A stretch of DNA of 64,000 nucleotides from an uncultured Parcubacteria group bacterium (GTDB taxonomy: Bacteria; Patescibacteriota; Patescibacteriia; UBA9934; CAMTUG01): positions 409,301-473,300 of the forward strand of contig CAMTUG010000001.1 of assembly GCA_947084965.1 (NCBI GenBank), read 5' to 3'. Positions 13,889 through 61,793 of this stretch are shown here, in pieces (the first letter of the stretch is position 1; each line of letters starts with the position of its first letter). Under the pieces are notes generated by a model. That model ran no database searches and was not told the origin of the DNA. It saw only the letters and a program-made list of their open reading frames with translations. The position numbers and the translations under genes are program-made.

Positions 13889-15469
13889 ATGCTCGACCAA
13901 TTTTTAGGCAAGGCGTTTTGGGTTACCTACGGAACGTTAGCTGTAGCCTACATCGCTGGATTTTTTGCGATCAACACCTCTGTTGCCTATGCTCTCACAG
14001 GAATTACTGCACTGATCACGTTTGTGGTATCGGTCAGACGCCTCGAATTTGGCCTCCTGATCGCGTTTGCAGAGTTAATCGCCACTTCCCACGGTCATCT
14101 CTTTCCCTACGGCCGTATGGCGATTTTTGCTGCCGTGATGCTCGCTTGGGGAATCCACCAACTTCTCCCCTCATCCAGATACCGGCTTCTGAAGCCGGTA
14201 TCAAGATTTGGTGAAATCCTGATGCCATTCGGCCTTCTGCTTGTCGCTGTTGCTTGGGGGATCTTCATGGGACTGCGTTTCGGAAATGAACAAGGAAACG
14301 TCATCAACGACGCCAATGGGTATCTCTATATCCTCTACCTTTTGCCAATTCTTAGTGTTGAATGGACGAGCGCAGCCAAGCGCCTGCTCCTCCAGGTCTT
14401 TGCTGGGGCTGCAGGATTCGTCATCGACCTCACACTGCTCATCCTTTACCTCTTCACCCATCTTTCCGAGCCGGTTCAGCGGGCGATGTACACCTTCTTC
14501 CGCGACGCCCGGATCGCCGAGCTCACCCGCGTGGTCGACGATATTTTCCGTGTTTTCCTTCAAGCTCAATTTTTCCCGATGATCTTGCTCTTTATCGCTC
14601 TCAGCGCCATCTTTTGGTTCTGGAAATCACGCCGCGATCAGAACGCAATCGCGATCGTCATTATCGGCGCACTTTCGACGATGATCATCTCCATGTCGCG
14701 CAGTTTCTGGGTCGGGATGATCGTGGCTTTTGTTGTCATTATCGGATCCGTATTTGTGGTCAAACGACCGAGCATCAAGGAGAGTATAAGGCTCTCGTCT
14801 GCCGGTGTACTGATGCTCGTCACCTCTGTCGCCACGCTCTGGTTTGTTTTGGCCTTCCCGTTCCCGCAAGCCCGCAACGTCAGTGGTTTCGGCTCGTTCC
14901 TCTCTGACCGCGTCAGCTCGAGTGATGCGGCGATCAGTTCGCGCTGGAATTTGTTGCCAGAGATGAATCGCGAGATCGCAGAACACACGATCTTTGGAAG
15001 TGGTTTTGGCACAATCATCGCTTTTGAATCGGACGATCCACGAGTGCGCGAAATGTATCCAGATGGGAAGTGGCGCACGTACGCCTTTGAATGGGGGTGG
15101 CATGATGCCCTCATTAAAATGGGGATTCTTGGACCACTCGCATTCCTTTGGATCGGGTACGTTCTTGGCGCTGGACTCCTGCGTGGATTTAAAAAGGAAA
15201 CAGGCTGGCTTTCGATTGGCCTCTTTGCTGGCCTCATCGCCCTGTACGCCACGCACGCCTTCAGTCCGTACCTCAATCACCCGATCGGGCTCGGGTATCT
15301 GCTGTTCTTGATCCCGTTTCTCACCCCAAAAACACAAAAAGCTTCCGAAGAAGCCATGGTGCCTGTGGCCGACATTATCCGCGCAGAGTTCCGTACCCCC
15401 GTTCAAACTCCGGTGTCGTCATCGGTTTCTTCCCTTCAGGTTGAACCATCTGATTCGGAAGGAGCTTAA
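13889..15469 (+). CDS. O-antigen ligase/polymerase-like membrane protein (Wzy_C family)
   Basis: 526-aa polytopic protein. The ...GALSTMIISMSRSFWVGMIVAF... segment resembles the Wzy_C motif. It contains the in-frame palindromic insert at 14178-14205. Confidence 0.55.
   Translation: MLDQFLGKAFWVTYGTLAVAYIAGFFAINTSVAYALTGITALITFVVSVRRLEFGLLIAFAELIATSHGHLFPYGRMAIFAAVMLAWGIHQLLPSSRYRLLKPVSRFGEILMPFGLLLVAVAWGIFMGLRFGNEQGNVINDANGYLYILYLLPILSVEWTSAAKRLLLQVFAGAAGFVIDLTLLILYLFTHLSEPVQRAMYTFFRDARIAELTRVVDDIFRVFLQAQFFPMILLFIALSAIFWFWKSRRDQNAIAIVIIGALSTMIISMSRSFWVGMIVAFVVIIGSVFVVKRPSIKESIRLSSAGVLMLVTSVATLWFVLAFPFPQARNVSGFGSFLSDRVSSSDAAISSRWNLLPEMNREIAEHTIFGSGFGTIIAFESDDPRVREMYPDGKWRTYAFEWGWHDALIKMGILGPLAFLWIGYVLGAGLLRGFKKETGWLSIGLFAGLIALYATHAFSPYLNHPIGLGYLLFLIPFLTPKTQKASEEAMVPVADIIRAEFRTPVQTPVSSSVSSLQVEPSDSEGA
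14178..14205. repeat. In-frame palindromic insert, copy 1 (GATACCGGCTTCTGAAGCCGGTATCAAG)
   Basis: A 10-bp arm palindrome inside the ligase-like CDS, encoding RYRLLKPVS. Confidence 0.65.
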
Positions 15470-16208: not shown

Positions 16209-16220
16209 AGCAAGAAAATT

Positions 16221-16283
16221 GGTAAGTGGTAAATAGAAAGCTGAGACACGAGCGTCTCCACTTACCACTTACTGCTTACTCTG
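16221..16283. repeat. Hairpin repeat, GTAAGYGG/GAGACAC family (R1)
   Basis: GGTAAGTGGTAA...GAGACACGAGCGTCTCC-ACTTACCACTTAC in the def-fmt intergenic region. Confidence 0.6.
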
Positions 16284-16286
16284 AAT

Positions 16287-16757
16287 CTAAAGTCTCGGAG
16301 GATTGGTAAACTGCTCAACTTTATCGATGAACAACACGCCGTCTAGGTGATCGATTTCATGTTGGAAGATCACAGAAAGTAGGCCGCTTCCCTTGACCGT
16401 CACCTTTTTGCCGTGTCGATCAAGCGCCTTGACCGTCACCGAGCGATAACGATGGACAAAGCCCCAGACACCGGGGACTGAGAGGCAGCCTTCTTCAAAA
16501 TCAAATTTACGGAAACTCTTCGCGGTGATGCGCGGGTTAATATACTCACGCGCCCCTTTACCTTCGTCCACGACGATGATTCGCTTGTTGACGCCAACCT
16601 GCGGTGCAGCCAAGCCCACACCATTAGCATTACGCATCTCAACGAACATTTCATCAATCAGCGTCTGCGTTTCTTCAGAACGCAAATCATCGAGTGAAAT
16701 CTCTACAGACTTCACGCGCAATCGGTCGTCCGGTTCGTGGAGAATCTCTAGTGACAT
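16287..16757 (-). CDS. def: Peptide deformylase
   Basis: GVGLAAPQVG...EGCLSVPG...HEIDHLDG are the three Def motifs. Confidence 0.9.
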   Translation of the reverse strand: MSLEILHEPDDRLRVKSVEISLDDLRSEETQTLIDEMFVEMRNANGVGLAAPQVGVNKRIIVVDEGKGAREYINPRITAKSFRKFDFEEGCLSVPGVWGFVHRYRSVTVKALDRHGKKVTVKGSGLLSVIFQHEIDHLDGVLFIDKVEQFTNPPRL

Positions 16758-18127
16758 ACCTTGATAATTATATCGTCATCGAGCATTTTGAGCGAGGATT
16801 TTTGTTGTTCAAACTCTGTGCGCGATATCCGCTTCTCTTCCGAACCAACGGTCAGGAGAACACCGAACGGCGGATAATTGAGTGCTTTTCGCGCCTCAAG
16901 TTCACTCGCGAGCAACGCTCTAGGGTCTTGCATGATCCGCTGAATCAGCGCTCCATCGTATGTCTGCACAATAAACGGGGTCTGCAAGCGCGCGGCGATC
17001 CCGCGTAGTTCATACAGACGAATGATCGCTTGTTCAATCGCGTCGTATTCGCCGCCATGAAGTCCGATATCCGCCTGTAGATCGACGATCAGTCCAAGGT
17101 TTGGTGGATCAAGCGGCTGATAGATGCTTTCCGTAAAGTAGCGCGTCGTAAGGAGGATCGCAGGTTCGGTCGGTAACGTCGCCTCAAACCCTTTTTCGAT
17201 GTGCAAAATGGGATTGCCGGGAAAGTATTCACGAAGTGTCCGATCTACCTCCTGCTCTCTACGGTTATACGAAAGTAGCACAGATTTTCCGCTCTGTAAA
17301 GCCTTATTGGCCGCTTCTAACGTCTTTTCTGAAAGAAGTTTTACCATGTCCCCACGCTTGGATTCGGCTCGAAGATCAACGACGTCGACAGGAGCTCTCG
17401 GTACCGGCTCCTGAAGCCGGTACCAGAGGGGGACTTCTCGAACACGAGGCGTGACGTCAGCGTAGACAACTCTGGTGCCGTAGATCTCAGACGCTAACTC
17501 AGCAAAATCACGCACATCATAGCGTGGATTACGGTCGTACGATGCGTGTTCTGGGCAACCGGAGCGGAGGATCACGATCGTGTCCGGCTTTTCAGCGCTT
17601 GCAAGAACGTCCATGCGGGTCATCGCCTGGGGGACCGTTAACGCATCGTGATGATGAGGCACAACGACCCACGTGATCCCTTGAATTGACTTGCGGATTC
17701 CTTCAGCCAAGGCTGCCCCTTGAACCAGATCCAGGATTTCGATGAACGTCTTTGGTTGTGTTTTGATCAGTGCAATGACCGAACGCAGATACGGTACCTC
17801 GGCGTGCTTGATACGGGCAGAGCTTATGGCGGGGAGAATCACCTTGCGTTTCGGCTTTTTTTGTAACGCAATATGCAACAGGGACGCCGTCGATTGAATC
17901 AGATCACTCGCCAAGCGTTCGAAGATCGTCAAACGATCCGAGCTGATGACGTTCGACTCAAGAAGAGAGATGATCGGCTTAATTTTTTTGCTTGGTACAC
18001 TGTCACTGACCGCTAACACAACTCCGCGAAGGATAGAGGAACGAAAGGGGATCTCGACAAGGTTGCCACGCGATACGACCATATCATCAGGCACAGCGTA
18101 ATCAAAAAAATCGAAGCGTCGAGGCAT
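16748..18127 (-). CDS. Primosomal protein N' (PriA)-like, apparently lacking helicase motif I
   Basis: N-terminal 3'BD-like ...DYAVPDDMVVSRGNLVEIPFRSSILRGVVL; PriA-like ...GKSVLLSYNRREQE... and C-terminal ...ELEARKALNYPPFGVLLTV. No GxGKT Walker A or Cys-rich zinc region is seen. ATG at 18127; the track start at 18157 is a GTG. Confidence 0.5.
   Translation of the reverse strand: MPRRFDFFDYAVPDDMVVSRGNLVEIPFRSSILRGVVLAVSDSVPSKKIKPIISLLESNVISSDRLTIFERLASDLIQSTASLLHIALQKKPKRKVILPAISSARIKHAEVPYLRSVIALIKTQPKTFIEILDLVQGAALAEGIRKSIQGITWVVVPHHHDALTVPQAMTRMDVLASAEKPDTIVILRSGCPEHASYDRNPRYDVRDFAELASEIYGTRVVYADVTPRVREVPLWYRLQEPVPRAPVDVVDLRAESKRGDMVKLLSEKTLEAANKALQSGKSVLLSYNRREQEVDRTLREYFPGNPILHIEKGFEATLPTEPAILLTTRYFTESIYQPLDPPNLGLIVDLQADIGLHGGEYDAIEQAIIRLYELRGIAARLQTPFIVQTYDGALIQRIMQDPRALLASELEARKALNYPPFGVLLTVGSEEKRISRTEFEQQKSSLKMLDDDIIIKVCH
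17400..17424. repeat. In-frame palindromic insert, copy 2 (GGTACCGGCTCCTGAAGCCGGTACC)
   Basis: A 10-bp inverted-arm palindrome inside the priA-like CDS, coding (W)YRLQEPVP on the minus strand. Homologous to the copies at 14178 and 61180. Confidence 0.6.
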
Positions 18128-18170
18128 GCGGCGAAGTGGGGCAACGTGAGCGATCACAGAAGGGCACCAG

Positions 18171-19016
18171 CTAGGTCAGTTCAAAATGCACGACAAGATA
18201 TCCGACACCAAAAGGAGATTCGTAAGAATGAACGACGGGCGTGTAGTTCACCCTCTCTAGTACACCAAGAAGCATGAGCAGTGGTCGATACGAGCACTCC
18301 TTGGCCTTGGCAAGTTTCTTCGCGTCCATCTTCAGAAGCGCTGCTGTGTTCATATTGGTAATACAGCGTTGAACGACTGCATCGTATTCCACACCCTCCT
18401 TGGCGTAGCCAGCTGGGGCGTCAGATGTCAGGGTATGCGATTGATCGCCCGTTGCGATAACCGCCACGCGTTTCTGCTCATTCATGATGACATCTTTTAA
18501 CGCGTCGCCAAAAGCGAAGTGCTCTTTGGGTGAGAGGCCCGAATAGGAGATCGGAACGATCTTGATTTGCGGAAGTTTTGGTGCCAAAAGCAAAAGGGGG
18601 ACCGCCGCCCCATAATCAAGCTTGGCATCAGAGGAAAGAGTTAGCTTGATCTGCTTCTTGCGCAACGAGCGCTGAATGCGATCGATCAGCATCAGATCTG
18701 GAGCGAAGTGTTTTTGGGTAGACAGGTCACCAAACTCGTTGAGATCAACAGAAAATTCGTCATGCAGATTGATGGAAAATGCTTCATCAAACATCGTCGC
18801 GTGCGAAGAGATAATCACGATCGTGTCCGGCCGCGCGCTGTACAACTCTCCGGCCAATAGCTCCATCGCCTTGCGCGTCTCCGCGACCTTATTCAACTGC
18901 TCCTTGTTTACAGAAGGCAGCAGTAAAGGGGAGTGCGGGGTAAGAGCGGCAAATACGAGCACAGATTGGGAATGGAGTAAGCGGCAATTAGTAAGCGGAG
19001 ACACTGACAAGGTCAT
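18171..19016 (-). CDS. Extradiol ring-cleavage dioxygenase class III-like protein (LigB/DODA/YgiD family)
   Basis: ...VLVFAALTPHSPLL...TIVIISSHATMF...HDEFSVDLNEFG... parallels YgiD ALFLGHGSP/IVVVSAHW/HDFGGFP, and the His residues are retained. The start is uncertain: ATG at 19016 (its first 15 codons lie in repeat R2) or GTG at 18962. Confidence 0.4.
   Translation of the reverse strand: MTLSVSPLTNCRLLHSQSVLVFAALTPHSPLLLPSVNKEQLNKVAETRKAMELLAGELYSARPDTIVIISSHATMFDEAFSINLHDEFSVDLNEFGDLSTQKHFAPDLMLIDRIQRSLRKKQIKLTLSSDAKLDYGAAVPLLLLAPKLPQIKIVPISYSGLSPKEHFAFGDALKDVIMNEQKRVAVIATGDQSHTLTSDAPAGYAKEGVEYDAVVQRCITNMNTAALLKMDAKKLAKAKECSYRPLLMLLGVLERVNYTPVVHSYESPFGVGYLVVHFELT
18974..19004. repeat. Half-copy of the GTAAGYGG/GAGACAC repeat (R2)
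   Basis: GGAGTAAGCGGCAATTAGTAAGCGGAGACAC overlaps the stop and last codons (..VSVSAY*) of gene 18988..20391. Confidence 0.45.
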
Positions 19017-38937: not shown

Positions 38938-41901
38938 TTAGAGTTGGCGGAATTCGCAAATCTCTTTAAAGTCGCACCAGTTGCACATGAATCCCGGGGT
39001 TGGTTTGAAGTCCGAGGTGCGGATCGCCTGGGCCGTTTCAACGATGTCCTCGGCGAGCGCCGCTAACTCCTCTTCCGTTGCTAAGAACGAAACACGGGCG
39101 TTATTTTCAAGATAGTGATACGTCAATTTCACTGGCTTAAGCGGCGGGTTGAAGCACTGGACAGCAGCGATCTGATAGAGCATCAACTGACGCTTATCAT
39201 CAGAAGAGAGCTCTTCTTTTGGCGTCCCTGTCTTGTAATCAATGATCTCTACCCCGCCCTCAATCGTATCAACGCGGTCAATTCTACCACGAACGACGAC
39301 GTCCCCAAACTTGACTGTGAACCCCTTTTCGAGAAAAAGTGGCGACGGGCGATCTGCCTTGATCTGACCGTAATAGTCCATCAACGCCTTACGCCCTTTG
39401 GCTCGATAGTTCTCGCGAGCAACGTCGTTTTCATACCACTCATCGATCCAGGATGCGTCGTAGAGATCAGAGAGCTCTTCAATCGTCACCGGGATCGCGT
39501 CTCTGTTTTCCTCTTTCCTCTTTCCTCTTCCCTCGAACAGCGAAACTTGCTTGACACTCGTCCGCTCAATCCACAATTCGAAAAACTTCTGCAAGGTGTT
39601 GTGCATTGTTTTTCCGAATGATAACGAGTGCCGACCAAACACCGGCACGTGCAAGATGTGGGCAAACTTATACTGCAATGGACAGGTGGTGAACGCGGCG
39701 ATCTGCGTGAAGCTAAAGGACTTCGGAGGCAGGATGTGGGCGTTGGTGAGGTCGTAGCGATGCGGTGGAGCTACGCTCTCAATACTATTCATTGTTACGG
39801 GGCTTAACAGACTTTCGCTTGCAGCGACGTCTGTCACTCCGTAGCCAAGTTCAACAAGAAACCGCGAAAGTTTTTTCTTGCGCGCCCCGCCGTAATCTTC
39901 GGCTGAAGTGAGATAAACGGCATCCTTCGCGCGCGTCAAAGCGACGTACATCAACCGCCGTTCTTCTTCGAGGTGCACGTCCCCTTCCGGGATCTTCTCT
40001 TTAATCAAGGCGTCTGAGAGCGGAATGGCGTCGTGCTTTTCGCTCGTCGGAAATCGACGATCCACCATGCTCACGATAAACACATGACCGAACTCGAGGC
40101 CTTTTGATCCGTGAACGGTCATGATCTTCACTGTCTCTGGCCCTTCTTCGGGATCCATCTTCAACGCCCCTTCGTCACCAGACGATTGTTCGTGTTCCAG
40201 CTCTTCCAGGAACCGATGCAGCGTCGTATCCGCCGTGATCGATTCAAAGGACTTCATCCGTTCGTAAAACTGCTGAAGCAGACGAAACTCCTCTTGCTGA
40301 ATGCGTTCCGGACTCATCTTTACAAACCCGAGTAATCCAGATTCTTTTATCACATCCACAAACAACTCGCTCACCGGCTTGCGCTTAGCCGCATCGCGCC
40401 AGCGGGCAACAAGCGTCAACAAATGCGCCGACTGCTCAACGGTTTCGCGATCAACACCACGGATGGCGGTCGGATGTTCAAGAATCTGATTCAACGCCTT
40501 CCCTGCCCGATACGATTCATGGGTGATCTTCACTAACTCCTCTGGCTTCACCCCCAGCGTTTCATGCGACAAAATGCGATACCAACTTTGCGAGTGGAAC
40601 GGATGATCGATCACACGCAGCAGAGCGAGTGCGTCTAAGATTAACGGCTTGCGATACAAGCCACGCAACGCCATAAACTGATACGGCACAGCTTGGCGCT
40701 CCAGATGCCGGATGAACGGTTCGGCTGTATCGTTGGCACGGACCAAAATGGCGATTTCAGACAAGGCGACGCCTCCTTTATGGAGCGCCAAGATTCGATC
40801 AACAACGGCTTTGGCTTCATCCTCAAGCGCGTGGCAGTGAATGTGCTCGATCGTTCCTGTCGCCTCGCGCCCAGAGGTCAGTCGCTTGGAAAGTCCTTCG
40901 CCGAGCTGAGCCTCAAGGCGATTGGGGTTATTCTGTTTAATAAACTCATACGCACAATCCAAAATCGCCTGGCCGCTACGATAGTTTTCTGTGAGGATCA
41001 CTTTCTTGGAGTTTGGGTAGTCAGAATCAAACTGCAAAATATTTGACAGCGCCGCGCCACGGAACTTGTAGACAGACTGATCATCATCCCCAACGACCGT
41101 CAGATTATTCTTCGGCGCACTGAGCATCTTCACTAATTCATACTGCGCCCAGTTGGTATCCTGAAACTCATCAACCAACACATATTTGAACTGCCCCTGG
41201 TATTCGGCCAGAATCTTCGGTCGCGTTTTAAACAGCTTTAACGTGTAGGCGATGAGATCTCCAAAATCAAGCGCGCTGTTTTCGAGTAACATCTGCTGAT
41301 AGACGTGGTAGGCATTGGCGATCTCCTCAAGCCGCGAAAGCTCCGTGGCATCAATTCCCCCGGCTTGGGTCGAGTCCTTGTCTGCTTTTCGTCCTTCAAC
41401 GTAGGCGAGATATTCGTCCGGCGTGATGTTTTCGTCCTTGGCGCGTGAGAAATGCTGCAAGAGCGCATGAATAAACTTTGTCGGATTTCCTGCTGGGCGA
41501 TAATAATCCAAGTTGAAACGATCGAAGTTCTGGCGGACGAGGAGCCAAGCGTCGGTCTGATTCAGTAATTTGAAATCATTCGGCACACCGATATCAAGAG
41601 CGTGCGCTTTTAAAATGCGTTCGCAAAAGGAGTGAAAGGTCGAAATCCAAAGGTCCACATACCCGATTGGCAGCAAACGATCGACACGTTCTTCCATTTC
41701 CGCCGCCGCCTTTTCGGTAAAGGTGAGGGCGAGGATCTCATCGGGCTTTGCTTTCCCCTGCTCAATCAAATAAGCGATACGATGGGTAATGACCGTTGTT
41801 TTGCCCGTCCCAGCCCCAGCAATAATCATCAGCGGGCCCTGGTCGTGCATGACCGCCTCAAGCTGGGCCTTATTCAGTTTTTCAAGGAGGTTGTCTTGCA
41901 T
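38938..41901 (-). CDS. UvrD/PcrA-family helicase fused to a C-terminal RecB/Cas4-like PD-(D/E)xK Fe-S nuclease (AddA/AdnB-like)
   Basis: Walker A ...IIAGAGTGKTTVI... plus UvrD motifs. The C-terminal nuclease has ..RIDRVD...IIDYKTG.. and a four-Cys cluster (CPLQY...CNWCDFKEIC). ATG at 41901 (MQDNLLEKLNKAQLEAV). Confidence 0.8.
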   Translation of the reverse strand: MQDNLLEKLNKAQLEAVMHDQGPLMIIAGAGTGKTTVITHRIAYLIEQGKAKPDEILALTFTEKAAAEMEERVDRLLPIGYVDLWISTFHSFCERILKAHALDIGVPNDFKLLNQTDAWLLVRQNFDRFNLDYYRPAGNPTKFIHALLQHFSRAKDENITPDEYLAYVEGRKADKDSTQAGGIDATELSRLEEIANAYHVYQQMLLENSALDFGDLIAYTLKLFKTRPKILAEYQGQFKYVLVDEFQDTNWAQYELVKMLSAPKNNLTVVGDDDQSVYKFRGAALSNILQFDSDYPNSKKVILTENYRSGQAILDCAYEFIKQNNPNRLEAQLGEGLSKRLTSGREATGTIEHIHCHALEDEAKAVVDRILALHKGGVALSEIAILVRANDTAEPFIRHLERQAVPYQFMALRGLYRKPLILDALALLRVIDHPFHSQSWYRILSHETLGVKPEELVKITHESYRAGKALNQILEHPTAIRGVDRETVEQSAHLLTLVARWRDAAKRKPVSELFVDVIKESGLLGFVKMSPERIQQEEFRLLQQFYERMKSFESITADTTLHRFLEELEHEQSSGDEGALKMDPEEGPETVKIMTVHGSKGLEFGHVFIVSMVDRRFPTSEKHDAIPLSDALIKEKIPEGDVHLEEERRLMYVALTRAKDAVYLTSAEDYGGARKKKLSRFLVELGYGVTDVAASESLLSPVTMNSIESVAPPHRYDLTNAHILPPKSFSFTQIAAFTTCPLQYKFAHILHVPVFGRHSLSFGKTMHNTLQKFFELWIERTSVKQVSLFEGRGKRKEENRDAIPVTIEELSDLYDASWIDEWYENDVARENYRAKGRKALMDYYGQIKADRPSPLFLEKGFTVKFGDVVVRGRIDRVDTIEGGVEIIDYKTGTPKEELSSDDKRQLMLYQIAAVQCFNPPLKPVKLTYHYLENNARVSFLATEEELAALAEDIVETAQAIRTSDFKPTPGFMCNWCDFKEICEFRQL

Positions 41902-43099: not shown

Positions 43100-43107
43100 A
43101 GGAAATT

Positions 43108-44541
<1,434 letters not shown>

Positions 44542-44665: not shown

Positions 44666-45562
44666 TTACTCAAGTGCCGCTTTACCCGCGCTAATCTCCG
44701 CAATTTCGCGGGTGATGCCGGCTTGGCGAATCTGGTTAAAGGTGAAGGTCAAGTTATCGATCATCTCTCCGGCCGCGTCGCTCGCGCTTCTCATCGCCAT
44801 CATGCGGGCGCTGTGTTCCGATGCAGCAGATTCGAGGAGCGCTTGCCAGACCATCGTTTCGACGATCCGCGGCAGGATCGCGTCGAGGACTTCTTTCGGC
44901 GAAGGTTCGAATCTGTACTCCGCTTGCTTCTCCTCTTTCCTTGTTCCTCTTTCCTCTTCACCTATCTCACCGATCTCTTCATCCGGCTTCAGCGGCAGGA
45001 GGTCGATCACTCTCGGGGTCTGGGTGATCGCACTCCGGAAGTCCGTGTAAGCGATCGCCACCTTGTCGTACTTCCCTTCTGCATAATCCTGCAACACGAG
45101 CTTGCTGATCGGGAGAGTATCTGTAAACTTCGGAGTATTGGTTAGGTCTGTGAATGAAGCGATGATGTTCTTTTGAATTCTACGCATGGCGTCCGCCCCA
45201 CGGCGACCGACCGTAATCGTATCGACTTCCACCTCGTGATAAACCCCGAGCGCCTTGGTCGCCTCCTTAATCATGCGCACATTGAATCCGCCGCACAGGC
45301 CGCGATCAGAAGTGAAAAGGACAAACAAAACGCGTTTGACCTCCGTGCGCGGAGCAAGCAAGGGATGCGTCGCTGGATCCGTTACCTTGGCGATCGCCCG
45401 CACCGTTTCCCAAGCGAGCTGGGTGAACGGTCGCGTACCCACCACCGCCGCGGTCGCTTTGCGCATCTTCGAAGCAGCCACAAGCTCCATCGCTTTGGTG
45501 ATCTTCTTCGTATTCTTGACCGACTTGATGCGGCGTTTAATTGTGCGAGTATTTGCGGGCAT
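44666..45562 (-). CDS. atpG: ATP synthase gamma subunit
   Basis: MPANTRTIKRRIKSVKNTKKITKAMELVAASKMRKA... Confidence 0.9.
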   Translation of the reverse strand: MPANTRTIKRRIKSVKNTKKITKAMELVAASKMRKATAAVVGTRPFTQLAWETVRAIAKVTDPATHPLLAPRTEVKRVLFVLFTSDRGLCGGFNVRMIKEATKALGVYHEVEVDTITVGRRGADAMRRIQKNIIASFTDLTNTPKFTDTLPISKLVLQDYAEGKYDKVAIAYTDFRSAITQTPRVIDLLPLKPDEEIGEIGEEERGTRKEEKQAEYRFEPSPKEVLDAILPRIVETMVWQALLESAASEHSARMMAMRSASDAAGEMIDNLTFTFNQIRQAGITREIAEISAGKAALE

Positions 45563-48293: not shown

Positions 48294-48302
48294 TTAGATA
48301 TT

Positions 48303-48360
48303 AGTAAGTAGTAAGTGGTAATTGGAGACAGCTGTCTCTACTTACCGCTTACCAATTACC
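48303..48360. repeat. Hairpin repeat, GTAAGYGG/GAGACAC family (R4)
   Basis: AGTAAGTAGTAAGTGGTAATTGGAGACAGCTGTCTCTACTTACCGCTTACCAATTACC in the atpB-atpE intergenic region. Confidence 0.6.
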
Positions 48361-48364
48361 AATT

Positions 48365-49195
48365 TCAATGCGCGTGCGCCATCTTTGCTTCATGATTCCC
48401 CTCCTCGTGCTCCTCTCCGTGTGCTTCGGTAGCAACGGTCAGATATGCGAGCGTGAGCATCGCAAAGACCGTCGCTTGAATCACCGCGACGAGAAGTTCG
48501 AGGAAGATGAATGGCAGAGGGAGGAAGTAGGCGAAGATTCCGAGAACGATCGTAATCAACACTTCGCCGGCAAAGATATTTCCAAAGAGACGCAAGGAGA
48601 GCGAAAGGACTTTGGCAATTTCTGAAACAATTTCGATCAACCCAACACCAAATTCAATGATCGCCACAATGACCGCCATTGGCCCTTTCGGAATCGCTTT
48701 GAAGATTCCGCGGATGTTGACGAATTTGGAAAGATGGGCGATCGGGCCAAGCTTTACTAATCCAAAGAGGTGCGAAGCGAGAACGGCCACCGCGGCGATC
48801 GCAAGCGTCATGTTCAGGTCGCTCGTTGCGGGACGCAGGAGCGGGATAAGGGCCATCTCACCATGGATGACTTCGCGGACCCCAATCGATCCCGTGCCCG
48901 GCATCTGGCCAAGCAAATTGGAGACGAGCACGAATAAGAAGATCGTTCCAACGATCGGCAAGAACTTTTTGGCGCGCTCGCGATCTTCCGTCACCTTTTG
49001 TGATTCCGTGAGCATGAATTCCACGATCGCTTCGAAGATATTGTGAATCCCTTTTGGCACGAGCCCCACGCGACGGCGGGCAATCGCCGCGACGACAACA
49101 AAAAAGATCACAGCGATCCAGGCGTTCACCATGGAGTTTGTGATCGGCAATGCGGCGATATGAGCGATTGGTTCAGCGGCGAGGGATACGGACAT
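48365..49195 (-). CDS. atpB: ATP synthase a subunit
   Basis: ...LSLSLRLFGNIFAGEVL... carries the conserved Arg helix; polytopic. Confidence 0.9.
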   Translation of the reverse strand: MSVSLAAEPIAHIAALPITNSMVNAWIAVIFFVVVAAIARRRVGLVPKGIHNIFEAIVEFMLTESQKVTEDRERAKKFLPIVGTIFLFVLVSNLLGQMPGTGSIGVREVIHGEMALIPLLRPATSDLNMTLAIAAVAVLASHLFGLVKLGPIAHLSKFVNIRGIFKAIPKGPMAVIVAIIEFGVGLIEIVSEIAKVLSLSLRLFGNIFAGEVLITIVLGIFAYFLPLPFIFLELLVAVIQATVFAMLTLAYLTVATEAHGEEHEEGNHEAKMAHAH

Positions 49196-49497: not shown

Positions 49498-49542
49498 GGC
49501 AATTTGTCATTTTTGAAAGTCATTTATCCCCATAAATCGCGA

Positions 49543-49569
49543 AACCCACCTGAAGTGCTCAGGTGGGCT
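49543..49569 (-). terminator. Terminator hairpin of island B minus-strand gene, paralogous to 12252-12280
   Basis: AACCCACCTGA-agtgc-TCAGGTGGGCT. It has compensatory base changes relative to the island A hairpin (AG/CT versus TGA/TCA). The flanking sequence shares CGCGAA...TCGTG.G.G...GGAGTGCC..CTAC with island A. Confidence 0.5.
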
Positions 49570-49594
49570 CGACGTGGGTGAAGCAGGGAGTGCC

Positions 49595-50479
49595 CTACTT
49601 CGTCTGGGTGGTGGGGATCGGTTGCATCTCTGGGCCGGAGACGCCGCCGAACTTGGCGAAGCCGCAGCAGCCGCAGAACAGGACGAGGAGGAACCCGACG
49701 ATGATGATCAGCGGCAAGTTGCCCGCGATCGCGCCGCTGATGGTCGGCTGGGTCGGGGTGCCGGTGGCGCTCGTCGCCTTCCCTGCTTCCTCGCGACCCT
49801 TCTTGGCGGCGTCCTTCCGCTTCTTGCGCTCCTCCGCGCGTTCGTCCCGCGCGGCCTGCTGATCGGCCGTCGGGTTGGCCCAACGGTCCCGGGCCCGAGC
49901 GACGGCGGCGTCCTGGCGAGCACGCGCCGCGGCAGCTTCCGCCGCACGCGCGACCTCGGCTTCGTGGGCCGCGGCGGCCGCCTTGGCTTCGGCGGCCTTG
50001 CGATCGTCCTCGGCCTTCTTCGCGGCGGCGCCAGGGTCGACGGGCTTCACGGTCTCGGCCGGCGTCTCGGGCGCGCCAGCCTTCTTCGCGGCAAGGGCAG
50101 CGGCTGCTGCGGCTCCGGCTGCGCCAGCGGCGACCTCCTCGTCGAGGTCCGGGATGCCGTCCCCGTCTTCTTCGACGACCGCCTCCTCGGGCTCCTCCTC
50201 TTCCTCGCTCGGCTTCTCGGCCTTGACGCCGGTCAGCTTCTCGAGGATCGGGTGGACGACCTCGGCCATGGCGCCGATCACGCTGCCCAGCGTGCCGGCC
50301 TCCTTGGCGTCGAGGAGCTCGGTGAGGAGCTTCTGCGAGGGCTCGTCGAGCACGTCGGCCATTTCGTCGGCCTTGACGGCGTCCGCGGTCCAGGCGGCGC
50401 TGAGGTCCGACCACTCCTGGTCGGTGAGCTCCTCGCCATCCAGACACTTCTTCAACAGGGCCTTGATCTTCGGGTCCAT
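49595..50479 (-). CDS. High-GC tail-anchored membrane protein of unknown function (294 aa)
   Basis: ATG at 50479 (MDPKIKALLKKCLDGEELTDQEW...) with a GGAG RBS. It has an acidic linker (EEEEEPEE), an Ala-rich helix (AEAKAAAAAHEAEVARAAEAAAARARQDAAVARARD), a single C-terminal TM (LPLIIIVGFLLVLFCGCCGF) and a short tail. The track start at 50635 is upstream of the promoter. Confidence 0.55.
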   Translation of the reverse strand: MDPKIKALLKKCLDGEELTDQEWSDLSAAWTADAVKADEMADVLDEPSQKLLTELLDAKEAGTLGSVIGAMAEVVHPILEKLTGVKAEKPSEEEEEPEEAVVEEDGDGIPDLDEEVAAGAAGAAAAAALAAKKAGAPETPAETVKPVDPGAAAKKAEDDRKAAEAKAAAAAHEAEVARAAEAAAARARQDAAVARARDRWANPTADQQAARDERAEERKKRKDAAKKGREEAGKATSATGTPTQPTISGAIAGNLPLIIIVGFLLVLFCGCCGFAKFGGVSGPEMQPIPTTQTK

Positions 50480-50564
50480 TCGGTACTCCGTGGGTGGGGG
50501 TAGATGTCCTGACTGCGGGATCCTTGACGCCTGAAGCGTCGGAACGGGAGAAATCCAGCCGCCA

Positions 50565-50593
50565 AATATAGCATAAAAAACCGATTTTGTCAA
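50565..50593 (-). promoter_or_regulatory. Sigma70-like promoter for island B minus gene (TTGACA-17-TATATT)
   Basis: The minus strand reads TTGACAaaatcggttttttatgcTATATT; the leader of about 85 nt contains the hairpin GACGCttcagGCGTC. Confidence 0.45.
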
Positions 50594-50657
50594 TCCAGCC
50601 CAACAATAAGGGCAAAAAGCGAAAAAGAGGCACAAATAAAGCCAAAATCTTATCTAG

Positions 50658-50693
50658 GCAGACTTGACAAAATCAAAAAAGTCTGCTATTTTA
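50658..50693 (+). promoter_or_regulatory. Sigma70-like promoter for island B plus gene (TTGACA-16-TATTTT), with -35 inside an 8-bp inverted repeat GCAGACTT-N13-AAGTCTGC
   Basis: gGCAGACTTGACAAAATCAAAAAAGTCTGCTATTTTAcaagg; leader of about 120 nt with a GGAG RBS. Confidence 0.5.
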
Positions 50694-50812
50694 CAAGGCT
50701 GTGCAGGACCCTAAAAGAGAGGGCTGGCAGTGGTTTTCCCCGACAGCGGGGCTGATCGAGAGAGAAAGGACACAACACCCAAACGGCGGCCAACCCGCCA
50801 ACGGAGCACACC

Positions 50813-52408
50813 ATGGCGACCCTCGCCGAACAGCTCGCCGCGCAAGCGGCCAACGCCAGCAAGAAGAACGACAAGGGCAACAAGAAGGGCGGTCTCGCGG
50901 CGCAGGCCGCGGCCGGCAACAAGCCCGACGCCAAGGCGCAGCAGGAGGCCCGGGCGGCGGCGTTCGCCGACGCGCAGAACGACCTGGCCGCCGACGCGGT
51001 GATGAAGATCGGGGAGCTCGCCCAGGGCAACCGCCGCGCCCAGGCGGACCTGATCTCCCGCATCGTCCGCAACGGAGAGAAGCTCGCCATCTTCGAGGTC
51101 AGCCCCCGGCAGGAGGAGGGACGGCACGGCGAGGGCCTCAAGTGGGTCGGCGACACCACGATCGACGGCGTCGGGGAGACGGTCGGCTTCACCAGCCACA
51201 TCATCCTCTTCGACCTGGTCGCCGGGAAGAAGGTGTGGTGCTGCCTCGTGCAGGACAAGAAGCGCAAGGACAGCTACAGCGCCTTCCCCCTCGGCCTCTG
51301 CGAGGTGTCCCTCATCAACAACTGGAACGGGAACCGTTCGAAGGAGGACCCGACCATCACCGTCATCACCGGCTCGATCCGCGACGCCCACCGCAGCGTC
51401 AAGCTGACGGTCCGCGAGATCGTCGAGCTGCGTGGGCGGGGCGGGGGTCAGCACCTCGCCTGGCTCAAGGGCTTCCGCCTGGTGAAGCACGAGCGGTGCC
51501 AGCCCTTCGCGCTCAACGTCAAGTCCGTGTTCAAGATCGAGCTGGGCGAGCGCGGCGCCACCCTCCGGTTCGTCTCCACGGCCGAGGCCTTCCAGGGCTT
51601 CGATCACAAGGCGATCGCGATCGGCGGGGCCTCGAGCAAGCCGGTCGATCCGCTCGCGGCGGTCGGCAAGGTGACGATCGAGGAGGTCAACCCGGACATC
51701 GTCCACGGGCTGATCAACAAGCTGAAGGGAGAGAAGAAGACGGACGAGCACCCCACCGTGAAGGCGATGAAGGCGGCCGGGCGCAAGGTGTCGGACGACA
51801 TGGCCGGGCGCGAGGGCCCCATCAACTCGGTCCTGGAGAAGGAGGTCAAGCCGGCGCTCCTCGAGGCGCTGGACGTGGAGATCGAGAAGCGCGAGAAGCT
51901 CCTCGGCGACCTCCCCACCCTGCGCGTGTTCCTGGGGCTCACCACCTCGGACGACATGCGCAGCACCCACCGCAACATCAGCAACCGGCGCGACGCGCCG
52001 AAGGAGGGCAAGGACTCGCCCGCCGAGTTCATCGCCGAGAAGACCAAGATCCCGTTCACCTGGTCCCTCTTCGGCCGCTACTTCCGGGCCGGACTCCTCG
52101 CCAAGATCGCCCAGGCGGAGGAGAGCCACGATCTGGCCGTCAAGATCGTGGTGCTCGAGAAGGAGGTCGAGGTCAACGCCGAGGACATGCTCGGGTGGCC
52201 CGACTGGACCAAGGAAGGGATCGCCGCCCGACTCGAGGCGATCGAGAAGGGCGACGTGCGCGGGGCCGTCTGGGTGGTGAACCAGGCGCTCCGGCAGCAC
52301 AAGGTGGAGATCGACCTCGGCAAGGAGGGCCACCTCGACATCGTGAAGGCTGCGGTGAAGACCGTCGCCGACGCGGTGATCGCCAAGATCACGCCCGCCG
52401 CCAGCTAG
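50813..52408 (+). CDS. High-GC 531-aa soluble protein of unknown function
   Basis: ATG at 50813. The N-terminal ~60 aa are A/Q/K-rich low complexity (MATLAEQLAAQAANASKKNDKGNKKGGLAAQAAAGNKPDAKAQQEARAAAF...). No P-loop, HTH or catalytic motif is recognised by eye. Strong GC3 bias. Confidence 0.6.
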   Translation: MATLAEQLAAQAANASKKNDKGNKKGGLAAQAAAGNKPDAKAQQEARAAAFADAQNDLAADAVMKIGELAQGNRRAQADLISRIVRNGEKLAIFEVSPRQEEGRHGEGLKWVGDTTIDGVGETVGFTSHIILFDLVAGKKVWCCLVQDKKRKDSYSAFPLGLCEVSLINNWNGNRSKEDPTITVITGSIRDAHRSVKLTVREIVELRGRGGGQHLAWLKGFRLVKHERCQPFALNVKSVFKIELGERGATLRFVSTAEAFQGFDHKAIAIGGASSKPVDPLAAVGKVTIEEVNPDIVHGLINKLKGEKKTDEHPTVKAMKAAGRKVSDDMAGREGPINSVLEKEVKPALLEALDVEIEKREKLLGDLPTLRVFLGLTTSDDMRSTHRNISNRRDAPKEGKDSPAEFIAEKTKIPFTWSLFGRYFRAGLLAKIAQAEESHDLAVKIVVLEKEVEVNAEDMLGWPDWTKEGIAARLEAIEKGDVRGAVWVVNQALRQHKVEIDLGKEGHLDIVKAAVKTVADAVIAKITPAAS

Positions 52409-52488
52409 AGGAAGCTGGACTTCAAGAGAAGGGCTAGAGGTAGCAGATGAATCAGTCTACCTCGCCCAACTCATCCTCACTCACGAGC

Positions 52489-52517
52489 GACACCCACGGA
52501 AAACTTCCGTGGGTGTC
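52489..52517 (+). terminator. Terminator hairpin of island B plus gene
   Basis: GACACCCACGGAA-aac-TTCCGTGGGTGTC is a 13-bp stem in the ACCCAC family. A second hairpin, TAGACGGGGCgcagtgGCCCCGTCTA (52526-52551), abuts the tatD stop. Confidence 0.5.
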
Positions 52518-52551
52518 ATCGCGTTTAGACGGGGCGCAGTGGCCCCGTCTA

Positions 52552-55439: not shown

Positions 55440-55457
55440 ACGGTAGAAAGCGGAAAG

Positions 55458-55480
55458 CAGTAAGTGGTAAATTGAGACAC
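55458..55480. repeat. Half-copy of the GTAAGYGG/GAGACAC repeat (R5)
   Basis: CAGTAAGTGGTAAATTGAGACAC in the rsmI-metG intergenic region. Confidence 0.4.
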
Positions 55481-57720: not shown

Positions 57721-58245
57721 ATGATCCACGTTGGACAACCGGCCCCGGACTTTAGCAACGTCACCGCATATCACAAAGGCGAATTCCACAGCGTCTCCTT
57801 AGCGGACTACAAAGGCAAGTGGCTCGTTCTCTTCTTCTACCCGCGCGACTTCACCTTTATCTGCCCAACGGAAATTAAAGGATTCGGCGCGCACAAAGCG
57901 GAGTTTGAAAAGTTAAATGCGGAAGTCGTTGGGGCTTCCACCGACTCGGAGTGGTCACACAAAAACTGGTTCGAGCGTGATCTCAAAGAAGTAGAGTACC
58001 CGGTCTTGGCCGATGTGACCCACGAGGTGTCCAAAGCGTACGATGTGTTTAACGCCAAAGAGGGCTTGGCAGAACGCGGACTGTTCATCATCGATCCAGA
58101 AGGGATCGTGAAGTATGCGCTGGTCAGTGCCGGATCGGTCGGCCGCTCGGTCAAAGAAACCCTACGCGTCCTCGAGGCGCTGCAATCCGGCGAGCTCTGT
58201 CAGATGGAATGGGAACCGGGATCGGAAGGGTTAGGAAAGGCGTAG
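57721..58245 (+). CDS. Peroxiredoxin (AhpC/TSA family)
   Basis: ...FFYPRDFTFICPTEI... contains the peroxidatic Cys. Confidence 0.85.
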   Translation: MIHVGQPAPDFSNVTAYHKGEFHSVSLADYKGKWLVLFFYPRDFTFICPTEIKGFGAHKAEFEKLNAEVVGASTDSEWSHKNWFERDLKEVEYPVLADVTHEVSKAYDVFNAKEGLAERGLFIIDPEGIVKYALVSAGSVGRSVKETLRVLEALQSGELCQMEWEPGSEGLGKA

Positions 58246-58250
58246 AAAAA

Positions 58251-58320
58251 CAGTAAGCAGTAATTGGAAAGTGGAGACGCTCAATGAGTGTCTCCACTTA
58301 CTACTTACCAATTACCGCTT
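58251..58320. repeat. Hairpin repeat, GTAAGYGG/GAGACAC family (R6); bidirectional terminator between convergent prx and pepA
   Basis: CAGTAAGCAGTAATTGGAAAGTGGAGACGCTCaatGAGTGTCTCCACTTACTACTTACCAATTACCGC. Confidence 0.6.
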
Positions 58321-58321
58321 T

Positions 58322-59857
58322 CTACAGCCCCCGAACTAATTCCATCAACGTTCTGACGCCGACCCCTGTACCACCCTTGCCGGTGTAGGCGTTGATCGGG
58401 CGCTCGGCAAACGATGGACCAGCGATGTCCAGATGGGCCCACGGAATGTTATCGACGAATTCTTGCAGAAATAATCCGGCCGTTAACGCGCCGCCGTAGC
58501 GCCCGGCGAGATTTTTTAGATCTGCCACTTCCGACTTCAACTCGCGTTTGTAATTCTTCTCAAGTGGCAGTGACCACATCTTTTCTCCAACCGCTCCTGA
58601 GGCGGCCAAAATCCTGTTCTCTAACTTTGCGTCGTTGCTCATCACCCCGGTGATCTCTTCCCCAAGCGCGACCACGCAGGCACCGGTCAACGTTGCAAGA
58701 TCAACGATCATGTCCGGCTTTTGACGTACAGCATAGGACAAGGTGTCGGCCAGAGTGACGCGACCCTCAGCATCGGTGTGCAACACTTCAATCGTTGTAC
58801 CGTTCATGGCGGTCACCACGTCGCCCGGGCGAATCGCTTTGCCGGACGGCATGTTTTCACAAGCGCCAAAAATCCCTTCGACGATCACGTTCGGCTTGAG
58901 TTCTTTGATCACCGAGAAGAGTCCGAGGACCGCAGCCGCGCCAGCCATGTCGAGTTTCATTGTGTACATCCCTTCTGCCGGTTTGATCGAAAGTCCACCT
59001 GAGTCAAAGGTGATCGCCTTTCCAACAATCGCGATGCGCTTCCGCGTTTCGGTTTTTCTGTTTTTCTGTTTTTCTGTTTTTCGTATGTAGGTCATCTGCA
59101 CCATCGCTGGTGGATGATCCGCCCCTTGGGCGATGCCGAGCAATCCGCCCGCGCCCATCTTTTCCAGCGCGGCCTTATCCATCACCTTCACCTTGATCAC
59201 TCCTTTGCTCGCCTTGCCAATTTCGAGGGCTTTGGCGACCAACTCCGCCGGCTGCATGTGACCGGACGGCGTATTGACCAAGTCGCGGGCATACATCGTT
59301 CCGGCAACACCCAAATTTCCGAGCGTAATTCCGGCTTCAGCTTGCTTCACGGCTCGACCATCGTTGGTCATGATCGTGAACGTCTGCACACTCGGCTTGT
59401 TCTTCTTTTTCTTATACTTATCAAACTTGTATACCGCCAGCTGGGCCCCTTCCGTGATCGCCCGAGCGCATTCCTTAGGCGCAAGCTTCCCTGCCCCAGC
59501 GCCGTGTAAAATCGAAACGACGCTCTTTGCACCAAGTTTCTCCGCACACTGAGCAGAAAGAGCCGCCGCCTCGCGGACATTCTCAATGGTAAAGTCTTCT
59601 TTTTTTCCAAGGCCGACGAGCAAGATGCGCTTGGCTCCAAACTTCGACGATGGCCGAACAAGTAACGTTTCATTCACACCCCCCTTAAATCGATCCTCTT
59701 TGGCAACGCTCATCAATTCACCCCCCAGAACAGCATCAACATCCGCTGTCGCCCCACCAAACTTCTCGAATCCTTCAAACGCATTGAGAACAAGCAGATC
59801 AGCTTTCACCGCTGTGAGATCCCCTTTTTGAACAGAAAACATCATACACATTTGCAT
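58322..59857 (-). CDS. pepA: Leucyl aminopeptidase (M17)
   Basis: ...HTDAEGRVTLADTL... (NTDAEGR motif) and a conserved C-terminal catalytic domain. The first ATG is at 59857; in-frame alternatives are at 59851, 59845 and 59842. Confidence 0.85.
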   Translation of the reverse strand: MQMCMMFSVQKGDLTAVKADLLVLNAFEGFEKFGGATADVDAVLGGELMSVAKEDRFKGGVNETLLVRPSSKFGAKRILLVGLGKKEDFTIENVREAAALSAQCAEKLGAKSVVSILHGAGAGKLAPKECARAITEGAQLAVYKFDKYKKKKNKPSVQTFTIMTNDGRAVKQAEAGITLGNLGVAGTMYARDLVNTPSGHMQPAELVAKALEIGKASKGVIKVKVMDKAALEKMGAGGLLGIAQGADHPPAMVQMTYIRKTEKQKNRKTETRKRIAIVGKAITFDSGGLSIKPAEGMYTMKLDMAGAAAVLGLFSVIKELKPNVIVEGIFGACENMPSGKAIRPGDVVTAMNGTTIEVLHTDAEGRVTLADTLSYAVRQKPDMIVDLATLTGACVVALGEEITGVMSNDAKLENRILAASGAVGEKMWSLPLEKNYKRELKSEVADLKNLAGRYGGALTAGLFLQEFVDNIPWAHLDIAGPSFAERPINAYTGKGGTGVGVRTLMELVRGL

Positions 59858-60057: not shown

Positions 60058-60874
60058 AACTGATTTGCACTTCGTCTTCGACGTTCGGAATGAACCCGTA
60101 CTGCTCCTTAATGTACAGACGTGCGCCGGGCAATCCGACGATACCCGTGCGACGGGCGATCTCGAGGCCTTTGTGCGCAAAACTCGATCCAGTAATAAGC
60201 CCAAGTTCGCCTGGGGCGAGGAGCGTCAATTTTTCGCGATAGATAAGCTTCATCTCTCCGAGATGCTTACCGTCCCGGATTAAGCGCACGGTATATTCCT
60301 TTCCGACTTCCAGCGGACGCTGGGAAGCGAGTTTCATATTATCGAACGAATCGATCCAAGCCACGCGATCGGTCGCAACAGACGGAATCGGATAGCTGGC
60401 TACAGGATGAGTGACATACAACGTGTCGCGCTCTCCATCGGCTGTTGCCACAAATTCCCCGGCGGCCTTTGGGAATACATAGGCCGAACGGAACTGCGAT
60501 CCGCTGGTGTTCCCGTCATCTGTCCGTTTGGTATAAATCGTTTCGATCTGATCTTTTATTAACGTCAGCGAGTATCCTTCGTTTGGGCCGACGAGCAGAC
60601 CGCCCGTTTTCACCTTCACAAAAACCATTTCGCCGGCGCGGTTCCCTTCTAACTTTTCCGTGGCGTTGCGCGGTGCGGCGTTAAACAGCACCACGTCCCC
60701 TTCCGAGAATTCTGCTTCCGCTAACAAAAAACTGAGCGAGAGCGTCGCGAATGGTTCGGCGGCGTAGAACGTTGTTGGGACACCGGGAAACGCCTGAGCA
60801 ACCTGCGCTTCAATGCGCAAGCGAGCATTGGCGTCAGAACAGTCATTGATGATGATGATACGCTTAGCTTCCAT
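60056..60874 (-). CDS. SAM hydroxide adenosyltransferase-like (DUF62) protein, divergent
   Basis: MEAKRIIIINDCSDANARLRIEAQV... and C-terminal ...AWIDSFDNMKL resemble DUF62 TDFG.../IDHFGN, but the DFG motif is replaced by DCS. The track ORF is extended upstream. Confidence 0.4.
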   Translation of the reverse strand: MEAKRIIIINDCSDANARLRIEAQVAQAFPGVPTTFYAAEPFATLSLSFLLAEAEFSEGDVVLFNAAPRNATEKLEGNRAGEMVFVKVKTGGLLVGPNEGYSLTLIKDQIETIYTKRTDDGNTSGSQFRSAYVFPKAAGEFVATADGERDTLYVTHPVASYPIPSVATDRVAWIDSFDNMKLASQRPLEVGKEYTVRLIRDGKHLGEMKLIYREKLTLLAPGELGLITGSSFAHKGLEIARRTGIVGLPGARLYIKEQYGFIPNVEDEVQIS

Positions 60875-60902
60875 AATGATTGTGATGCTATCATGTGAGC
60901 GT

Positions 60903-61793
60903 ATGAAAATCAAACGGAAGTTATTGATTTGGTATAAAAAGAACGGGCGCGATCTGCCATGGCGCAAAACGCGCGATCCGTACAAAATTTTAGTCTCCGA
61001 GGTGATGCTCCAACAAACCCAGGTACCGCGCGTGCTCCTGTACTACAAAAAGTGGCTGAAACGATTTCCGAACTGGTCAGCGCTGGCCAGAGCGACAAAC
61101 GCTGACGTGATCCGCGAATGGGCAGGACTCGGATATAACCGCCGAGCGCTCGCCCTCCGCGATATTGCTAAAAACTTCCGATACCGGCTTCTGAAGCCGG
61201 TATCAAGTCAGGATTGGCAAACATTCAAAGGGATTGGCCCGTACACGGCCGCGGCCCTGGCCGTGTTCACTCGTACCGAGCGCGTTATGCCGATTGATAC
61301 AAATATTCGCCGCGTCCTTGGGCGGCTGTTGCTCGGGAATCCATGGCCTGATCCCAAGCTCGACGAGAAACTTCAGGCCCGCGCCGAGCCGATGATTCGA
61401 GGAAAAAACTTTGATCTCATCCCCCAAGCCCTGTTTGATCTCGCGACCTCGATCTGTAAAAAAGTTCCTGATTGCGCTCTTTGCCCCCTTCGCAACGACT
61501 GCCCTGCGGCAAAAACGTTCCTCTCAGGTACAATGAAAACACCGAACGCGCTGATCAAAAAATCAAATGAAAATATTCACCGCAACAAAAAGTTTCCTGA
61601 CCGCATTTACCGCGGGCGCATTTTGCGGCTCGTGCAGGAATCTTCGCGAGCGCTTCGTGTTTCTCAGATCGGCTCAATGATCGATACCACCTTCGATTCT
61701 TCACTCGATCAGCCTTGGCTCGAAGCGATGATCGGTCGACTCGAGGCAGATCAATTCATTAAACGACAAGGACGAACGATCAGGCTCTACTGA
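60903..61793 (+). CDS. mutY: A/G-specific adenine glycosylase MutY-like (HhH-GPD with 4Fe-4S)
   Basis: ...LPWRKTRDPYKILVSEVMLQQTQV... and ...CKKVPDCALCPLRNDC. It contains the in-frame palindromic insert at 61180-61207. Confidence 0.8.
   Translation: MKIKRKLLIWYKKNGRDLPWRKTRDPYKILVSEVMLQQTQVPRVLLYYKKWLKRFPNWSALARATNADVIREWAGLGYNRRALALRDIAKNFRYRLLKPVSSQDWQTFKGIGPYTAAALAVFTRTERVMPIDTNIRRVLGRLLLGNPWPDPKLDEKLQARAEPMIRGKNFDLIPQALFDLATSICKKVPDCALCPLRNDCPAAKTFLSGTMKTPNALIKKSNENIHRNKKFPDRIYRGRILRLVQESSRALRVSQIGSMIDTTFDSSLDQPWLEAMIGRLEADQFIKRQGRTIRLY
61180..61207. repeat. In-frame palindromic insert, copy 3 (GATACCGGCTTCTGAAGCCGGTATCAAG)
   Basis: Identical 28-mer to 14178-14205; encodes RYRLLKPVS inside mutY. 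Confidence 0.65.

Follow-up and report, generated by a model that had tools for sequence, protein, structure and literature searches.

The window, by which we mean the whole stretch of DNA analysed (64,000 nt), carries core housekeeping genes, among them the atp operon, mreBCD, rpoA and the genes for ribosomal proteins and aminoacyl-tRNA synthetases. Nothing resembling a transposase was conspicuous in an ORF map of the window drawn up without a Pfam scan. Three genes of the window, unrelated to each other, are the subject of this report. The first (13889-15469, plus strand) encodes a Wzy_C/O-antigen-ligase-like membrane protein of 526 aa, here called ligase-like. The second (16748-18157, minus strand) encodes a short PriA-like protein of 469 aa, for which PriA_3primeBD is the sole Pfam match. 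The third (60813-61793, plus strand) encodes a MutY-like adenine glycosylase of the HhH-GPD type; its true start probably lies downstream of the called one, since the database protein has 305 aa. Named homologues of the three proteins come from Candidatus Uhrbacteria/Patescibacteria, and all three ORFs are intact, with full-length homology to their orthologues. In the alignment, both the PriA-like protein and its orthologue from a sister genome are without a Cys-rich segment of ~49 residues that is present in more distant relatives.

Two compositional features of the window may be mentioned here. Positions 49524-52437 form a high-GC island (65.7% GC at 50-52 kb versus about 52% elsewhere); it has long ORFs on both strands with low-complexity, Arg/Gly/Pro-rich translations, so that its gene content is doubtful. 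The cumulative GC skew computed over the window (1-64000) peaks near 26 kb and falls steadily thereafter, and this peak may correspond to a replication terminus or origin within the window.

A palindrome within three coding sequences

The three genes share a short palindromic sequence. The exact 28-mer GATACCGGCTTCTGAAGCCGGTATCAAG is found twice in the window, both times on the plus strand: at 14178-14205 in the ligase-like gene (copy 1) and at 61180-61207 in the mutY-like gene (copy 3). A variant, GGTACCGGCTCCTGAAGCCGGTACC, lies at 17400-17424 in the PriA-like gene (copy 2). These are the occurrences given in the preliminary description, and dinucleotide-preserving shuffles of the window lead to an expectation of 0 matches. 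The copies are spaced 3.2 kb and 43.8 kb apart, all within genes, and both orientations relative to transcription are represented among them. In copies 1 and 3 a single T at the centre separates two 12-nt arms, which makes a perfect palindrome of 25 nt; in copy 1 the palindrome, GATACCGGCTTC-T-GAAGCCGGTATC, occupies 14178-14202 and is followed by AAG. The arms of the priA copy are 10 nt long and enclose CCTGA (GGTACCGGCT-CCTGA-AGCCGGTACC, written for the plus strand). This anatomy differs slightly from the initial depiction of the element as a palindrome with 10-bp arms around YCTGA. Copy 1 lies within a longer, imperfect palindrome (14166-14214, plus strand), the 24-nt arms of which are 79% complementary. 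Compared with the other copies, the priA copy has G-C instead of A-T at stem position 2, an outer pair that is changed on both arms with stem pairing preserved (GATACC/GGTATC versus GGTACC/GGTACC); it also has one mismatch adjoining the centre.

As single-stranded DNA the three copies fold into hairpins of -11.9 to -13.8 kcal/mol, with z = -5.5 to -7.8 relative to shuffles (copy 1: -12.1 kcal/mol, z = -7.6; copy 2: -13.8 kcal/mol, z = -5.5). They are the only perfect palindromes with arms of at least 9 nt that lie clearly inside identified genes of the window. Of the remainder, three are intergenic hairpins, taken to be terminators, and another (49545-49567) is in a doubtful high-GC ORF. The bases flanking the palindromes are CCA/AAG, TCC/AAG and CTC/AGA. 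No direct repeat or target-site duplication flanks any of the three copies, and no conserved flank or target motif beyond the 25-28 nt is evident across the three sites. The priA and mutY flanks lengthen the hairpin by 4 bp past a small bulge, as do ~2.5% of random window positions (about p = 0.025 for each site).

The reading frame is kept in all three host genes, and the peptide (R/W)YRL(L/Q)(K/E)PV(S/P), noticed at the outset, is indeed encoded in each of them: RYRLLKPVS in the ligase-like protein (R97-S105) and again in the MutY-like protein (R123-S131), there directly before the helix-hairpin-helix motif, and WYRLQEPVP in the PriA-like protein, whose coding strand is the minus strand. The codons are identical at the ligase-like and mutY copies. 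Because the palindrome yields YRL(L/Q)KPV both ways, it can be read through in frame in either orientation; its third reading frame contains a TGA stop. A placement in loops or linkers, originally a prediction, is supported by AF2 models for two of the proteins and by the alignment for the remaining one. In the MutY-like model (pLDDT 88), residues 123-131 cover the last part of helix 109-124 together with the loop (125-131) that precedes the helix-hairpin-helix. Residues 97-105 of the ligase-like model (pLDDT 85) are in or adjoin a loop (93-104) that connects two transmembrane helices and has a pLDDT of only 61-71. The PriA site belongs to an indel-rich stretch of the alignment.

Other identities for the palindrome were considered and rejected. 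Its core, CCGGC-TTCTGAA-GCCGG, resembles the anticodon arm of tRNA-Gln(CUG), but the palindrome is 4 bp longer on each side and the window contains no tRNA. A reading in terms of restriction sites (RCCGGY, ACCGGT, GGTACC) fails in that such sites are neither enriched nor depleted. The copies are not CRISPR repeats either, as they lie inside genes and not in a regularly spaced array.

Recent gain and replacement of loop codons

To place the palindrome in evolutionary context, we compared the host genes with their homologues; the comparison genomes are metagenome assemblies throughout. Of the 398 homologues obtained for the three genes, none but the three proteins of the source genome has the motif.YRL[LQ][KE]PV. 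In a sister genome (Logan SRR6488953), the orthologues of PriA (P0122, 77% amino-acid identity) and of the ligase-like protein (P0293, 85%) have neither the palindrome nor the peptide. The closest MutY relatives (64-68% identity, the nearest being P0002 with 68%) also have no palindrome. Since the element is missing from the sister orthologues and from the closest MutY relatives, these alignments show the palindrome to be a derived, lineage-specific and recent gain, made after the split from the sister genome. This agrees with the earlier proposal of a gained segment as opposed to an ancestral motif, as close orthologues are without both peptide and palindrome.

The manner of the gain differs from what had been proposed. 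In the ligase-like protein, 18 residues (QLLPSSRYRLLKPVSRFG) separate the conserved WGIH and E(I/V)x(M/L)PF, versus 11 (FLRGRRPNIKH) in the sister, a net gain of seven residues; more distant ligase homologues match the sister in both length and basic patch. A codon alignment with the sister contig (L015) sets the block LPSS-RYRLLKPVS-RFG against RGRRPNIKH, and the differing block is roughly coextensive with the imperfect palindrome at 14166-14214. At the PriA site, 27 nt stand in place of the sister's 21 nt (net gain of two residues). The MutY loop has 19 residues, whereas 97 of 108 homologues have the canonical 18 (net gain of one), and its sequence differs throughout except for the Pro of KPV, which falls at the family's conserved Pro position. 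At this site P0002, a relative without the insert, has a hairpin of 6 bp. Judged from the alignments, then, no site is a clean insertion, and the ancestral loop codons are replaced at all three. The plain insertion of about 9 aa that the preliminary description envisaged is not what the alignments indicate: the ancestral codons give way to the palindrome in each of the three genes, with net changes of +7, +2 and +1. As a consequence of this replacement, loop length changes little.

Logan assemblies of run ERR3478686 carry the mutY copy (contig L012) and the ligase copy (contig L016), and L016 is identical to the window over their 16,114-nt overlap. These contigs extend the window by 7.3 kb of flanks (4.3 kb to the left from L016 and 3 kb to the right from L012), so that the three copies are contained in ~71 kb. 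No fourth copy was found in the window or the 7.3 kb of flanks, even when up to 5 mismatches were allowed in the 21-nt core. Scans for the exact pattern in collections that do not include the source genome gave 2 hits in 185,579 species genomes (one per GTDB species), 6 in JGI metagenomes and 0 in IMG/VR. All of these hits are at chance level and in unrelated organisms; mostly they correspond to a VPAPEAG motif of lipoyl domains, read in another frame. Rfam at gathering thresholds gave no match anywhere in the window. At the protein level, exact 9-mers of the palindrome peptide score only E = 240-800 at protein-database size.

Hairpins in the MutY loop of relatives and elsewhere in the window

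Two relatives have strongly hairpin-forming, in-frame inserts of 50-60 nt in the same MutY loop; both resemble REP dimers, with GTAG...CTAC or ATAG...CTAT ends. In P0004 (L017:1183-1241) the insert reads ATAG-GCGGGGC-TACCAT-GCCCCGC...GCGGGGC-GCAGTG-GCCCCGC-CTAT, and RNA folding of the loop region yields -48.6 kcal/mol (z = -8.4). In P0003 (L018:845-898) it reads GTAG-GGGCCGGG-TCT-CCCGGCCC...GGGCGGG-AAAA-CCCCGCCC-CTAC (z = -6.2), arranged like a dimer of GTAG REPs whose tags are outermost. The P0004 insert consists of two units of a hairpin that is intergenic beside tatD in another genome (L013:1645-1670; 24 of 25 positions identical, E = 2e-6). It also matches a hairpin of the window, TAGACGGGGC-GCAGTG-GCCCCGTCTA (52526-52551, plus strand), at 22 of 23 positions (E = 3e-5), with a compensating stem change. 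This window hairpin is intergenic too and abuts the tatD stop codon, and it is its counterpart that is dimerised in frame in the MutY loop of L017. Different hairpin inserts are thus present in the same MutY loop in three lineages, and one of them can be traced to an intergenic hairpin. Within the window, the hairpin at 52526-52551 has a neighbour at 52489-52517; the two are adjacent, both perfect, and bounded by a high-GC ORF on one side and the stop codon of tatD on the other.

Not every loop insert in the relatives is a hairpin. The MutY protein P0006 (L013:10274-10354) has an AT-rich insert with the 9-nt direct repeat AAATACTAA on either side, P0061 (L020:10274-10333) has a tandem duplication of CTACCACCTACCAA (two units), and the ligase homologue P0150 (about L019:10300-10340) has a (GAGC)4 microsatellite in the loop. 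Upstream of mutY in one relative (GCA_004297215.1, L020:2443-8300) we noticed genes for a ResIII helicase, an N6_N4 methyltransferase, a DUF4231/SLATT protein, a ThsB-like TIR protein and a GIY-YIG protein, a cluster that looks like a defence island.

The window also harbours a second hairpin family of ~70-80 nt, with arms of (GGTAAGY)n around a ...GGAGACA / TGTCTCC... centre. We counted about eight full or partial copies, at 16213-16279, 18968-19003, 39497-39531, 43100-43173, 44926-44959, 48295-48366, 55444-55479 and 58244-58322. The full hairpins of this family are intergenic, for example between def and fmt or between atpD and atpC. The def/fmt copy (~80 nt) represents a clean filled site when compared with the sister genome (L015), in which def directly adjoins fmt; therefore, hairpin DNA has been gained recently in this lineage.

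Relation to known repeats and possible origin

Among known repeats, the closest parallel to the palindrome is offered by REPs, stem-loops of 20-40 bp that have stems of 5-13 bp, short loops and a GTAG or CGTC tag, the GTAG tag also occurring in the degenerate forms GYAG, GYRG, GTRG, GTMG and GTGG (Di Nocera, De Gregorio and Rocco 2013, PMC3733652). According to the same study, REPs are mostly intergenic, downstream of ORFs, and number tens to thousands of units per genome; some lie wholly within ORFs and are translated, many of the hosts being replication or repair genes (Uvr, Rec, Pol). REP families divide into subfamilies by complementary stem changes, recB of two Xanthomonas species carries different REPs at nearly the same position, RPE-4 and RPE-6 of R. 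conorii are grouped with CGTC REPs, and only the GTAG-class REPs are associated with RAYT (Y1 transposase) genes (PMC3733652). The palindrome is similar to REPs in its size (25 nt), its stem of 10-12 bp and loop of 1-5 nt, and the absence of a target-site duplication. Further similarities are the complementary A-T/G-C stem change between copies, the occurrence of different hairpins at one gene site in relatives (mutY here, recB in Xanthomonas), the in-frame intragenic position and the replication/repair hosts, PriA and MutY being two of the three. It is unlike REPs in having no GTAG or CGTC on either strand (its ends are GATAC...GTATC or GGTACC...GGTACC), in being fully symmetric and perfect, in its replacement sites, and in its CPR/Patescibacteria host. 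All three known copies are intragenic, a further difference from REPs that derives from a small sample (~71 kb), and the copy number may be low. Because the tag is missing and no intergenic copy has been seen, we class the palindrome as REP-like and place it outside the GTAG/CGTC superfamilies. By appearance it is a relative of REPs, unusually small and located inside genes, rather than a new kind of element.

Two other classes are less similar. As described by Ogata et al. (2000; cited in PMC3733652 and PMC3184786), Rickettsia palindromic elements (RPEs) sit in frame in unrelated, apparently functional genes and are tolerated as an extra peptide. They are about 105-146 bp long and encode tens of residues (PMC3184786). 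The palindrome likewise lies in frame inside three intact genes, but it is only 25-28 nt (9 codons) long, has no sequence relation to RPEs, and is found in a different host phylum (Candidatus Uhrbacteria, as assigned by protein homology). The earlier comparison to a much shorter RPE therefore holds as regards the likeness to in-frame palindromic elements, whereas the shortness itself has a precedent in intragenic REPs of 20-40 bp (PMC3733652). MITEs are also non-autonomous, hairpin-forming, dispersed repeats that are at times fused to ORFs; however, they consist of terminal inverted repeats around a core and are accompanied by a target-site duplication, and the palindrome has neither core nor duplication.

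In our view, the 25-nt palindrome is probably a lineage-specific, REP-like mobile hairpin, and we infer mobilisation of the Y1/HUH type followed by selection on reading frame and loop length. Under this scenario, copies would spread to new sites as DNA hairpins, moved in trans, most likely by a RAYT/IS200-IS605-type tyrosine transposase or a similar hairpin-recognising enzyme. Enzymes of this type leave no target-site duplication, and none is present at the sites described here. The hairpin has come to lie in structurally tolerant loop-coding DNA of three unrelated genes; selection would then have purged those copies that shift the frame, bring in the TGA stop or over-lengthen a constrained loop. 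Because of such a filter, only in-frame and nearly length-neutral events would be observed. The identity over 28 nt at two loci implies copying between loci. The palindrome itself is probably neutral or mildly selfish and not functional. The REP-like reading is supported by the stable hairpins, the stem pairing kept through changes on both arms, the other hairpin inserts in the MutY loop of relatives, the filled def/fmt site and the published precedent of intragenic REPs. There are also observations that do not fit well. Replacement is not expected from simple hairpin cut-and-paste and, being seen at all three sites, counts against the REP-like reading. The same is true of the small number of known copies (three, all intragenic), the absence of a GTAG/CGTC tag, the lack of a conspicuous transposase-like ORF in the ORF map of the window and the absence of a conserved target motif from the three sites.

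The main alternative is that the replacements result from copying that requires no transposase, a possibility that we take seriously and yet consider unlikely. A break or stalled fork in loop-coding DNA would lead the nascent strand to use a distant hairpin as a template and then return, with the loss of local bases. Replacement at all three sites, the small net change in length and the lack of a target-site duplication are consistent with such copying, and so is the in-frame MutY insert of a relative, in which a terminator-like hairpin known from intergenic positions in two other genomes occurs as a dimer. The 4-bp extension of the hairpin at priA and mutY fits seeding by pre-existing inverted repeats, as does the 6-bp hairpin that P0002 has at the site without any insert. 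Templated copying explains the replacement junctions and the link between the terminator hairpin and the insert at least as well as the transposase model does. On the other hand, ordinary insertion followed by selection accounts equally for the replacement pattern, and no donor copy of the 25-mer was found in the ~71 kb examined. In addition, templated insertions from distant loci are rare in the systems studied.

It is improbable, in our estimate, that the palindrome is a selected cis-acting site, either a binding site for a dimeric protein (similar to parS, NBS or an operator) or an mRNA hairpin. Its perfect dyad symmetry and the symmetric compensatory change in the third copy would be expected of such a site, and palindromic chromosome-organising sites such as parS do occur inside genes. 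However, the palindrome is missing at the orthologous positions of the sister genome and the closest relatives, it occurs in both orientations relative to transcription, the public collections gave only chance hits in unrelated organisms, and there is no Rfam match. Moreover, since the 28-nt identity includes 3 non-palindromic bases, it argues for copying and not for convergence. Finally, the few copies, and the fact that the window and the Logan assemblies may share the same reads, might suggest that the peptide motif is ancestral, that the match arose by chance or that the assembly is at fault, but we give this hardly any credence in view of the 0 matches expected by shuffling, the identical codons at two loci, the frame kept at three of three sites, the absence of the motif from 395 homologues and the presence of copies in independent Logan assemblies.

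Our searches of the literature turned up no REP-like repeats reported from CPR/Patescibacteria, the genomes of which are very small, so that scarce selfish DNA might be expected there. As an untagged and perfectly symmetric 25-mer, the palindrome is among the smallest such repeats still recognisable. The near-conserved loop length at the replacement sites constrains models of how hairpins enter genes. One might go further and imagine a process in Uhrbacteria, possibly transposase-independent, that pastes terminator-like or REP-like hairpins into loop-coding DNA by replacement, with the MutY loop that precedes the helix-hairpin-helix as a recurrent target across lineages; we regard this broader idea as speculative and rather doubtful. 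If it is true, the bias of the hosts towards replication and repair (MutY and PriA in this genome, and Uvr, Rec and Pol genes in the study of Di Nocera et al.) would reflect either targeting by DNA structure or selection for altered repair, that is, tunable mutation rates. Taken alongside the excess of intragenic REPs already published for replication and repair genes, the small size of the palindrome, its replacement sites and the hairpins of the MutY loop provide a concrete, testable case for distinguishing targeting from selection.
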